Made by a program: the position numbers. Of a DNA stretch of 64,000 nucleotides, positions 6,601 to 9,600 are shown piece by piece (position 1 is the stretch's first letter; the number at the start of each line of letters is the position of its first letter). The stretch lies in NCBI RefSeq assembly GCF_001677475.2, contig NZ_CP012498.1; one strand, 5' to 3'. This DNA is from Escherichia coli (GTDB lineage Bacteria; Pseudomonadota; Gammaproteobacteria; Enterobacterales; Enterobacteriaceae).

Positions 6601-9600
6601 TAGTAGGAGAACGTGGAAATACGCTTTCCGGAGGGCAGCGACAGCGCATAGCAATTGCCCGGGTGATTCTCCTGAATACGCCTTTTATTCTGCTTGATGA
6701 ACCAGGTGTAGGGCTGGATAGTATAAATGAACTGGCGGTCTTTACAGAGCTGAAAAGACTCCTCAAGAATAAAACAGCACTGATTATCACACATGATTTA
6801 TCTCTGGCCGCTCAGGCTGATGAAGTTATTTTCATGGAGCAGGGAAAAATAACGGAGCGAGGCAATCACCATTCTCTGATGGCACGACAGGGACGCTATG
6901 CAGAACTGTGGTTACTGCAGAAGGAGGGAAAAGGGAATGCTGAATGATGTTGAGCGCGCTCTTGTTAGCCGGGATTCCATGCTGCCCGGGCTTGCTGCAC
7001 TACTTGACGAAACGGTGCTGACTGGCGTTCTGCGACAGCAAAAGCCTTTTTTATCCCTGAAGCGTGTAAGCGTTACCTACATCCGTTACAAACCTAAAAC
7101 CAGTTGTGTCGTGGGGGTGACGCTCTATATTGCTGATGAGATACCGTATTTTTGTTTTGTCAGAGCGCTGACGCGCTCCAGATTTATATCTTATTGCAGT
7201 CGATTAGTTTCTGACGGGAAAAATACCAGTGACTGGCCTGAAACCCCTGTATTACTTGATGAACTGGCTGCATTTATTTCTTCACCACAACTGGATCGCA
7301 AGTTATGCCTGGCCGCACTGTATAATAATAAATATACAGCACTGCTGCAGAATGCACGAGGCTCAGTCACCGGACAAGAGCGGGAACGCTGGCATTTTTT
7401 GCGTTACAAACCCGGGCGTCGTTGTGTCATTGGTGTTTATAGAGATGAACATCCTTTTGCGGTCATTCGTTGTGCGGCAGAAAAAGAGTTTTTTCGTCAG
7501 TTACGGGGAAGCCAGGCCGGATCCTCTCTGGCTCATATTGAACTTCTGGGGGTGAATGAAACAGACAGACTGATCGCTACCCGATGGATAGCGGGAAAAA
7601 GTCTGGATTATTTTCTGCATGGTCAGGAATATCTCAGTTTGGTCACGTTGACTGGAAAGTCACTGGCCAAGATCCATAATGAGCCTTATTTCCTGCCAGA
7701 GAAACAAACCTGCCGGGAGGCGCTCCAGCAGCTCTGGCAGGAACATGGCATGGTGACTGCACTTTATCCAGAGCTCGCGGAACGTTTTAGTCATTGTATT
7801 CTTCGTCTGAAGGCGTTATCTGAATGGCTGAGCCATGAGCAGGTTCTTTTGCACGGAGATTTTTCTGCTGATCAGGTTATCGTTGCAGAGGATGGCCGGA
7901 GTGTGAATATCATCGACTGGGATCGTTGTGTATATGGTCATCCTGCTGGTGATCCCGGCAGCTTTATTGCCCGGACTGAAATGGATGTCATTAACGGAGA
8001 GCTCACCGCTGCTCAGGCAAGAGGAATTCATGACGCACTGCTTGCCGGATACAAAACGGAACGAAAGATCAATGCTTTTGATATCGAATGGTATACCGCA
8101 AAAGCGCTGATGTGTCTTGTTGTGGAGCCTTTTCGTAAACGGGATGCCTACTGGCCGAAAAAAGCAGAACTGTTACTGAACAGAGTGGAGGATATCTGTG
8201 CGTCAGCTACACCTATCTCCTGAGTGGCAGGCAACGTTGCAGGAGCTTTGTTCTGTCCATGAAATGCAATCTTTTCTCCTCAAACTCCCTTGTGTGACAG
8301 CAGATAGTCAACTTATTAGTACCCGGTTATTACGGCAGAAGCCTGGGCGTAGGGCTCTGATTGAATACCATTTTGGGAGACGAGGGAGTTCTTCTCCTCT
8401 GCTGATTGTTGGGAAGTATCGTGAAAAGGGGGTTGATAAATTTTCATACTGCTGTCAGCAGGCGTTGTGGTCTGATGGTTTTCATCGGCAGAACCGGATA
8501 AGTGTGCCGGAACCGTTGATGATTTTGCCGGAAAAGAGAATGTGGCTGCAGCGTCATGTTGATGGTCTTTTGCTGACAGACGTACTGATTTCAAATGTGT
8601 TTTCTAGGCACGAGCAGATAAGTACTGGCACAGCTGTCGGATACGCACTTTCTGCCCTTCAGCAGCATGGTGAACTGGCCCGGGTCGTGAATGGACGGCA
8701 GTGGACTCTGACAGATGAACTGTCTGTACTTGAGCAGGGACTGACAATAGCAGGAGAGGAAAACGTTGCCCTTTATAAACGTATCGATGCGTTGATGAAA
8801 GGGCTGCGTGAAGTGGCTGCTGTTCTTTCGGGTACACGGAAAAGCTGCCTTCATCGTGATTTTTACCCTGATCAGATTATCAGTAACCGAAATGACAGAC
8901 GCTGTCTGACCCTTCTTGATTTTGACCTGAGTTGTACCGGGCCTTCCGCTCTGGATGCTGGTAACTGGCTGGCCCATGTCTGTGAACTGGGGATCCGCTA
9001 TAAGGGGGATTACCGGATATTCCATGCACATGAAACAGCATTTGTGGAGTCATGGCTCAGCCACATGTCCGGGGTAACAGTGAAAGAAACGGAAGGGTTC
9101 CGGTTGTTATCACTGGCCCGGCATATTTTTTTGAGTACCCGAATTCCGGGGCGGAAGCATACCACCCTACTTTTGCTTGCTTATTGTGAAAAGTGCATGG
9201 AGTATTTTTAATTATGTTCAGAAACGGTTCCGGTCGATTCTGTGGTTATTTTCTTCTGTTTTTTGTTTGTGGAGTAGTTCCGGTACAGGCTTCAGAGTCT
9301 GTTGACAATGAGTTATTTCGTCCAAAAAAAAACAGTCTGTCCGGGGACAGAAGTAACCGGGAACAACTGATACGGTTTCATTCTACAATGAAGCTGGAAG
9401 GCGAGAGCTGGCGGAACAGAACATTAAGGAAGGGACAAAAGCAGGAAAACCGACATGAATTTGAGCCACAATATCGTTTAAGAATTGAGATTGCCAGAAA
9501 GTCTTCTCTGTATGGTGTGGCGGAAGCTGAACTGAAAAACAAAACCAGGAGGGATTCCGGTAAACCAGAAGAACATAAAACCCGACTGGAACTGACTCAG

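Follow-up and report, generated by a model that had tools for sequence, protein, structure and literature searches.

The 64,000-nucleotide stretch of Escherichia coli contig NZ_CP012498.1 (assembly GCF_001677475.2) analysed here, hereafter the window, carries on its + strand two overlapping genes for kinase-like proteins, which we call KinA and KinB. KinA (6937..8223, 428 amino acids) comprises a vestigial N-lobe followed by a complete eukaryotic-like kinase (ELK) domain, and KinB (8198..9211, 337 amino acids, GTG start) is a complete ELK kinase. The list of open reading frames (ORFs) and their translations place 26 nucleotides in both coding regions. An upstream in-frame ATG at 6898 would extend KinA to a 441 residue ORF and is backed by neither RefSeq nor the homolog alignments; RefSeq starts the gene at 6937 and homologs align from the methionine encoded there, so that 6937 is taken as the correct start.

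An initial annotation of this DNA had described two overlapping ORFs with kinase-like signatures inside a glycan operon, and all of the motifs that it quoted were found where it placed them. The KinA motifs, with residues counted from the ATG at 6937, are YIRYKPKTSCVVGV (residues 48–61, nucleotides 7078–7119), FLRYKPGRRCVIGV (residues 154–167, nucleotides 7396–7437), which forms the β1-turn-β2 of the functional N-lobe and is equivalent to a P-loop, and HGDFSADQVIV, which begins at residue 306 (nucleotide 7852). The catalytic loop HGDFSADQ (H306–Q313) and the Mg-binding IDWD (326–329) together occupy 7852..7923. KinB, also on the + strand, contains LLRQKPGRRALIEY (residues 44–57, nucleotides 8327–8368), the β3 lysine K73, LHRDFYPDQII (residues 218–228, nucleotides 8849–8881) and the Mg loop LDFD. 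The neighbouring genes encode a GT28-like glycosyltransferase (GT), two GT4 enzymes, an ATP-binding cassette (ABC) exporter, an Alginate_exp barrel and Ugd, in keeping with a glycan operon. A full-text literature search covering the cassette, the strain and accession, tandem and maltokinase-like terms and the RM9088 paper found no publication on it.

Fold and family of KinA and KinB

Both proteins match the Pfam family APH (PF01636), KinA with an E-value of 1.6e-14 and KinB with one of 9.1e-6. The KinA match spans residues 182–382 of the 441 residue ORF, or approximately 169–369 counted from 6937. Beyond APH, Pfam lists only weak matches to Choline_kinase, DUF1679 and Phage_TAC_11, and the Kdo/WaaP family of lipopolysaccharide (LPS) kinases (PF06293) is absent among the matches of either protein up to an E-value of 10. 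An artificial concatenation of KinA and KinB was modelled with AlphaFold2 from an alignment of 57 natural fusion proteins, with a predicted local distance difference test (pLDDT) score of 92.3 and a predicted template modelling (pTM) score of 0.78. When this model was compared with the PDB using Foldseek, the top matches were all eukaryotic-like small-molecule kinases (E ~1e-7, 11–16% identity), including a choline/ethanolamine-kinase family protein, mycobacterial maltokinase, MTR kinase and APHs (each at probability 1.0), as well as PsiK, macrolide kinases and homoserine kinase. Single-sequence searches of the PDB with KinA and KinB reached a best E-value of 0.014. The family profile matched 3dxq (ChoK-like) best, at 1.6e-9, and placed several APHs ahead of maltokinase, which was matched at 5e-4 by the KinB part and at 2.6e-3 by the KinA part. 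By hidden Markov model and by fold, KinA and KinB are members of the APH/ELK superfamily. The proposal that they are kinase-like therefore stands: structure prediction and Foldseek returned an ELK small-molecule kinase fold, and the PDB matches are generic, with no characterised homolog of known role found among them.

RefSeq calls both gene products ‘aminoglycoside phosphotransferase family protein’. This name should not be taken as a resistance call, since the NCBIfam macrolide-resistance model Mph(F) gives 17 bits where its cutoff demands 650; no NCBIfam model fits KinA, and KinB has no NCBIfam match. That the pair might nonetheless confer antibiotic or self-resistance, by phosphorylating an aminoglycoside, a macrolide or a peptide antibiotic, could be argued from the RefSeq naming, from weak profile matches to capreomycin, viomycin, hygromycin and macrolide kinases, and from the fact that GTs, kinases and exporters all occur as drug-inactivation or efflux classes. 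We regard this as very improbable given the Mph(F) score, the size of the family and the fixed synteny with three GTs over many phyla described below, which favours a biosynthetic pathway. Two further candidates were rejected. A kinase of ribosomally synthesised and post-translationally modified peptides such as lanthipeptides was set aside because the match to LxmK is generic (37 bits against a cutoff of 315) and there is no conserved precursor or dehydratase, and anti-phage defence because PADLOC found no defence system, returning generic ATPase and kinase noise only.

Three N-lobe units and two catalytic centres

Profile-profile comparison with hhalign aligned the kinase part of KinA (136–428) with KinB over 244 columns (99.95% probability, E 1.3e-37), and the two are paralogs. 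Residues 1–135 of KinA also aligned with KinA 136–260 (95.5% probability, P 1.5e-8, the aligned portion being 136–190) and with the first 73 residues of KinB (95% probability, P 3.7e-8), the latter alignment taking in the helical leader, where LPGLA.LD is matched with P.LA.ALD. In the model the three N-lobe units have the same topology, consisting of a helical leader, three antiparallel strands, a helix and two short strands. Within KinA 1–115 these elements are strands 41–52, 56–65 and 70–78, helix 80–92 and strands 105–107 and 112–115; within KinA 133–216 they are strands 150–158, 162–169 and 172–180, helix 182–198 and strands 203–207 and 212–216; and in KinB, in the numbering of the concatenated protein, strands 466–476, 480–488 and 496–503, helix 509–520 and strands 534–538 and 543–547. 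A profile of KinA 1–146, run against 1.84 billion representative proteins, also matched two stretches in most split KinA-type proteins of ~430 residues and three in many, though not in all, of the fused proteins of 650–820 residues, with matches that always began at residue ~1, and this profile alone recovered 1176 clusters at 50% identity (E<=1e-10). Since the profile-profile comparisons, the shared model topology and the independent library search agree, the internal duplication of an N-lobe in KinA, which the initial annotation had suggested from the repeated motif, is well supported.

The extra lobe (KinA residues 1–146, 6937..7374, + strand; helical leader, βββ-α-ββ) contains a near-invariant hairpin, YLRYKPGTSC, which in E. 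coli reads YIRYKPKTSC (nucleotides 7078–7107, + strand). Within the family K52 of this hairpin is present in 120/120 sequences and C57 in 116/120. The β3 ‘Lys’ position of the lobe is relaxed, with lysine in 52, arginine in 36 and methionine in 14 of the 120. Because it is without a C-lobe partner and the β3 position is relaxed, the extra lobe cannot be a working nucleotide-binding lobe, and the near-invariance of its β1-β2 hairpin points to selection for a non-catalytic role. We infer that it is a catalytically dead duplicate kept as a structural or regulatory cap. The architecture of this subfamily is thus three N-lobe units and two C-lobes, in fused or split form, which is both unusual and distinctive.

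Conservation of the catalytic residues was counted over 58 fused proteins and 120 KinA-type sequences. In KinA G307, D308, D312, Q313, D327 and D329 are invariant and H306 is nearly so (at least 90%), R161 and R162 of the β1-β2 motif are invariant, K158 is found in 105/120 and the β3 lysine K178 in 111/120. The invariant residues of KinB, in concatenated numbering, are K501, H647, R648, D649, Q654, D669 and D671. One of the two proteins had been suggested to be a pseudokinase partner, and this part of the initial annotation was not borne out: both halves keep the β3 lysine, the HxD motif, the Mg-binding glutamine and the DxD motif family-wide and, since both catalytic centres are complete across the family, neither protein is a pseudokinase at that level. 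The degenerate element is instead KinA residues 1–146, which are without a C-lobe, and not KinA or KinB as a whole. In E. coli residue 178 of KinA (window 7468–7470) is an arginine, as it is in 8 of the 119 other aligned sequences, and the carriers include the second E. coli allele together with both fused and split homologs. KinA activity in E. coli may be reduced by this substitution.

The presence of two kinase-fold units per polypeptide in most family members recalls the JAK family, a JAK dimer being a low-ranking Foldseek match (rank 35). Differences from JAK are that KinA and KinB both keep all catalytic residues, that the degenerate unit is an N-lobe without a C-lobe, and that small-molecule chemistry is predicted. 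KinA and KinB might still be protein kinases that regulate the GTs or the exporter, in a manner resembling JAK-type regulation, and some APH-fold proteins do phosphorylate proteins, for example YihE/SrkA, which is itself a low-rank match. We consider this improbable, as the C-lobe is of APH type (DWD..GDP..D), the top structural and profile matches are all small-molecule kinases, and there is no conserved phospho-acceptor partner or phosphatase. A sugar or glycolipid substrate, as proposed initially, appears more plausible than a protein when the APH-type C-lobe is taken together with the HGDxxxxQ and DxD signature and the strict synteny with GT and exporter genes.

Both kinases have glutamine at D+5 after the catalytic aspartate, in place of the asparagine of APHs and choline kinases. 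The counterpart of this residue in maltokinase (Mak/Pep2) is the Mg-binding Gln310, which occurs together with a DFE/DFD loop that likewise binds Mg (PMC4306142), and in the actinobacterial glucosamine kinase (GlcNK), also a sugar kinase, it is the Mg-binding Q305, again with such a DFE/DFD loop (PMC6520443). The HGDFSADQ and IDWD of KinA and the HRDFYPDQ and LDFD of KinB have the features of the Mak/GlcNK catalytic loop, and the ELK bilobal fold, an HGD with a Mg-binding glutamine at D+5 and a DF(E/D) loop are common to these enzymes and the KinA/KinB family. The P-loop is non-glycine in each case, the substrate of Mak and GlcNK is a sugar, and an extra domain precedes the N-lobe and combines helices with short strands and three long antiparallel ones; in maltokinase this domain is a cap that restrains the P-loop and is a proposed docking site for a partner enzyme. 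However, the extra domain of KinA seems more similar to a kinase N-lobe than to the Mak cap, there is no specific sequence similarity (Mak falls behind 3dxq and several APHs), and the genomic neighbours are GT28-like, GT4, GT4 and ABC exporter genes rather than those of TreS/GlgE or GlcN metabolism. The APHs, macrolide and peptide-antibiotic phosphotransferases and choline/ethanolamine kinases (PF01636, PF01633) likewise have the same Pfam assignment, fold and C-lobe DWD..GDP..D, but differ in their low identity of 11–16%, in having asparagine for the D+5 glutamine, and in the extra N-lobe, tandem arrangement and glycan cassette that set KinA and KinB apart.

Fused relatives and the conserved cassette

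Among the 120 best homologs, 58 are single proteins of 640–750 residues that are colinear with KinA followed by KinB. A scan of 100,044 species genomes gave 323 stretches encoding relatives, from which 80 loci were fetched, and the kinase is one ORF in most of these. In most relatives, therefore, KinA and KinB form a single protein of ~650–800 residues. This fusion, which the initial annotation had not recognised, is also found in the other Enterobacterales with a whole gene (Serratia silvae, Brenneria, Mixta, Enterobacillus, Tenebrionibacter and Enterobacter sp.), and separate genes occur in a cyanobacterium, an actinobacterial metagenome-assembled genome (MAG), some Chloroflexi and one unclassified metagenome contig. 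That the two halves are a single polypeptide in so many of the top homologs, and at most loci, suggests that they act together.

Within the inter-domain linker of the E. coli genes there is a +1 change of frame. KinA ends ...RVEDICASATPIS*, and the start signals of KinB, as read from the sequence, lie inside the 3' end of the KinA gene (8187..8200, + strand), where a GGAGGA Shine-Dalgarno sequence at 8187–8192, which falls in the KinA codons for VED, is followed by a 5-nucleotide spacer and the GTG. Alignment of KinB with the nearest fused relative resumes at SPEWQATLQEL against SADWQNQLRQL. A second E. coli allele (locus L088, 87% nucleotide identity) has the same stop, GGAGGA and GTG. Between the two alleles the ratio of non-synonymous to synonymous substitution rates (dN/dS) is 0.12–0.21 across the eight genes of the block, with values of 0.20 for KinA, 0.19 for its extra lobe and 0.18 for KinB. 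All eight genes are thus under purifying selection and in use, and because the second allele also keeps the split, we regard it as a tolerated secondary state and not as decay. A programmed +1 frameshift joining KinA and KinB was judged unlikely: the P-site codon before the UGA is UCC, a slippery motif is absent, and the GGAGGA is 24 nucleotides upstream of the KinA stop, whereas its distance of 5 nucleotides from the GTG at 8198 suits initiation there. The public KinB call in the second allele (L088 11613–12284) has 223 residues and begins at an internal ATG; since the full 337-codon frame, the GGAGGA and the GTG are intact, this is likely to be a miscalled start site.

The kinase genes belong to a block of eight genes on the + strand in which most junctions overlap by 4–26 nucleotides, which is consistent with translational coupling. 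The first gene encodes the GT28-like GT-B glycosyltransferase (1547..2707), for which the sole NCBIfam match is a weak one to TIGR00661 (MJ1255/VC2487 family) and Pfam matches are not significant. With a family profile (A3) its best match is the MurG C-terminal domain (E 4e-7), followed by the GT1 enzymes YjiC, OleD and CalG, so that its donor domain is nearest to MurG and then to GT1 natural-product GTs. GT4a (2718..3977) matches NCBIfam EpsE and WcaL below cutoff and has BshA, MshA and PimB as its nearest solved structures. GT4b (3974..5143), which overlaps its neighbours by 4 and 11 nucleotides, is nearest to sucrose-phosphate synthase Tll1590, MshA and GlgM. The exporter is an ABCB/MsbA-type half-transporter (5133..6947) whose stop overlaps the KinA start by 11 nucleotides; its NCBIfam matches to MsbA, MsbA_rel, HepA and NdvA are all below the equivalog cutoffs, and its PDB matches are ABCB1, Sav1866, BmrA and MsbA. 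Downstream of KinB lie two accessory genes, for an Alginate_exp-family outer-membrane β-barrel (9214..10533, PF13372, E 1.4e-23) and for the UDP-glucose 6-dehydrogenase Ugd (10565..11737), which scores 341 bits, above cutoff, with the NCBIfam NDP-sugar dehydrogenase model. Of the promoter-like sites on the + strand, the best (1460–1488, with an extended -10 TG) lies just 5' of the first gene. Terminator-like hairpins number 27 in window 1–12600, against 9.8 +/- 3.0 expected from shuffles, and most of them lie inside coding regions.

The order GT28-like, GT4a, GT4b, ABC exporter, kinase(s), on one strand, is found in most of the fetched loci that reach far enough upstream, with the GT28-like gene opening the block in most of them. 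These come from Alpha-, Beta- and Gammaproteobacteria, Planctomycetota, Gemmatimonadota, Verrucomicrobiota, Chloroflexi, Cyanobacteria and an actinobacterial MAG. An Alginate_exp homolog stands beside the cassette in 26/86 tabulated fetched loci, most often immediately downstream of the kinase gene(s), and an OprB porin takes this position in the cyanobacterium Gloeocapsopsis. Ugd adjoins the cassette only in E. coli and Lautropia among the fetched loci. Its gene has a GC content of 0.37, against ~0.47 for the cassette, and a dS between the two E. coli alleles of 0.70, against 0.33–0.45 for the other genes, which suggests separate acquisition or recombination; its presence hints that the E. 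coli cassette may use UDP-glucuronate as a donor. The recurrent neighbours across ~80 loci included no priming transferase, Wzx/Wzy, ligase or phosphatase.

A HAMP-HisKA sensor kinase and an OmpR-type regulator adjoin the cassette in ~27–32 of ~80 loci, mostly upstream and divergent. The pair is found mostly in Rhodobacterales, and also in Gloeocapsopsis (L004 2075–4172), and is absent from the E. coli plasmids; where present, it suggests dedicated environmental regulation of the cassette. Two single cases of wider fusion were seen, one joining GT4b to an ABC transmembrane domain in a Caldilineaceae locus (L005 6420–9164), the other a continuous ORF across KinA, KinB and the Alginate_exp barrel in a Bdellovibrionales MAG (L080 4848–8606). 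Such fusions beyond KinA with KinB may be genuine Rosetta-stone links or artefacts of assembly or ORF calling, and as single instances they were set aside.

Proposed role of the tandem kinase and its plasmid setting

The reading that we favour, tentatively and at somewhat less than even probability, is that KinA and KinB form a two-site cytoplasmic carbohydrate kinase that phosphorylates the cassette glycan or glycoside before export. The three GT-B glycosyltransferases would build an oligosaccharide, glycoside or glycolipid head group in the cytoplasm. KinA and KinB, probably as a heterodimeric tandem kinase with both sites functional, would then add one or two phosphates, with KinA 1–146 serving as a cap in a position like that of the N-terminal cap by which maltokinase restrains its P-loop. 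The ABCB-type exporter would carry the anionic product out of the cytoplasm, and in enterobacteria the product may leave through the Alginate_exp barrel. The position of the accessory Alginate_exp and OprB channels directly downstream of the kinases points to a soluble, likely anionic carbohydrate as the exported product.

Several observations weigh against this. No characterised homolog of the kinases was found, and their PDB sequence and profile matches are generic. E. coli KinA has arginine at the β3 position, a change that inactivates many protein kinases. The heterodimer is suggested only by natural fusions and by a model of an artificial concatenation. The cassette is without an obvious priming enzyme or phosphatase, or nucleotide-sugar genes beyond the accessory ugd. 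Finally, exporters of the ABCB/MsbA type usually move lipids or lipid-linked glycans, for which a glycolipid product would be a better fit.

The kinases might instead act upstream, making a sugar phosphate to which GT4b adds a sugar and which the other GTs then extend. Small phosphorylated acceptors are glycosylated by sucrose-phosphate synthase, MshA and GlgM, the solved structures nearest to GT4b; the catalytic signature of the kinases resembles that of Mak, which makes maltose-1-phosphate, and of GlcNK, which makes glucosamine-6-phosphate; and the cassette is without a lipid-priming transferase. Against this, similarity of the GT4 enzymes to these structures is weak (E 1e-7 to 1e-14) and mostly in the donor domain, the kinase genes come after the exporter gene and not ahead of the GTs, and a single acceptor leaves the need for two kinases unexplained. 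We consider this order of steps unlikely.

Rather unlikely too, in our view, is a glycolipid or lipid-linked oligosaccharide whose head group is phosphorylated by the kinases at the inner leaflet, the product then being flipped by a MsbA/PglK-like exporter. This would fit an exporter of the MsbA/ABCB type and a GT28-like enzyme whose closest match, MurG, is a GT with a lipid acceptor, and GT4a resembles WcaL, EpsE and PimB. Kinases acting on such molecules are familiar, as WaaP, WaaY and KdkA act on the LPS core and WbdD acts on the O9a polymannan. WbdD is the chain terminator of the E. coli O9a O-antigen pathway, which depends on an ABC transporter. Proteins of the WbdD type combine a kinase with a methyltransferase and a coiled-coil ruler, export of O9a relies on a Wzm/Wzt pair that carries a carbohydrate-binding module, and the WbdD modification is reportedly also needed for exporter recognition. 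WbdD of E. coli O9a phosphorylates the growing polyprenol-linked glycan and so regulates chain length (PMC3482155), and it offers a precedent for a kinase-fold enzyme whose gene accompanies those of GT4s and an ABC transporter. It is this context alone that WbdD and KinA/KinB have in common: the Pfam scans of KinA and KinB list neither a Kdo/WaaP domain nor a WbdD-type methyltransferase domain, WbdD is absent from their PDB sequence and profile matches, and their exporter is of the ABCB/MsbA type. Further points against a glycolipid are that the cassette contains no ligase or oligosaccharyltransferase, that the accessory AlgE/OprB-type outer-membrane channels suit soluble carbohydrates, and that the cassette also occurs in Actinobacteria and Chloroflexi.

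A more specific form of carbohydrate phosphorylation before export can be put forward as speculation, which we hold to be unlikely in its full detail. The cassette would make a secreted phospho-oligosaccharide or phosphoglycolipid not previously described, two sequential phosphates would license export by the ABCB transporter, and the vestigial N-lobe would serve to link the kinase with the exporter or the GTs.

The block is found at >=99% identity in 17/5426 complete E. coli genomes. All 17 copies are on plasmids of ~140–240 kb, with flanking insertion sequence (IS) remnants. The window also carries, in 12629–17225 (- strand) and ~37000–62000, a plasmid-borne copy of fdnGHI (formate dehydrogenase-N), genes for 3-hydroxybenzoate utilisation (mhbT and a monooxygenase), many IS elements, and ehxA, ehxB and ehxD. 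Because these enterohemolysin genes are present, the plasmid is assigned to the type of Ehx-positive Shiga toxin-producing E. coli (STEC) that are negative for the enterocyte effacement locus (LEE) (PMC5009963). The window is mosaic, and no single E. coli record covers >=80% of either 25-kb piece. On a related plasmid (NZ_CP169400.1; L001 1–7000) the region upstream of the cassette encodes an S6-family autotransporter protease of the SPATE (serine protease autotransporters of Enterobacteriaceae) group and F4/K88-like fimbrial genes, which places the cassette in a virulence-gene neighbourhood on related plasmids.

These findings correct the annotation of KinA and KinB, which are not aminoglycoside-resistance genes, and define a large uncharacterised kinase subfamily of at least 1176 clusters at 50% identity, together with an unstudied block of five to six genes conserved from Actinobacteria to Planctomycetes. 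A kinase fold in a glycan context is ordinary; the triple-N-lobe tandem, the breadth of the cassette and its occurrence on STEC plasmids make the system a reasonable experimental target. The duplicated N-lobe provides a testable case of a regulatory ‘cap’ arising from a kinase lobe, and may be relevant to how the maltokinase cap arose. If the speculative reading in which two phosphates license export is correct, the cassette would represent a new and phylogenetically widespread route of glycan secretion that is borne on STEC virulence plasmids. On these enterohemolysin-positive, LEE-negative plasmids, a phosphoglycan that is secreted or lies at the surface could be important to host colonisation or environmental survival.

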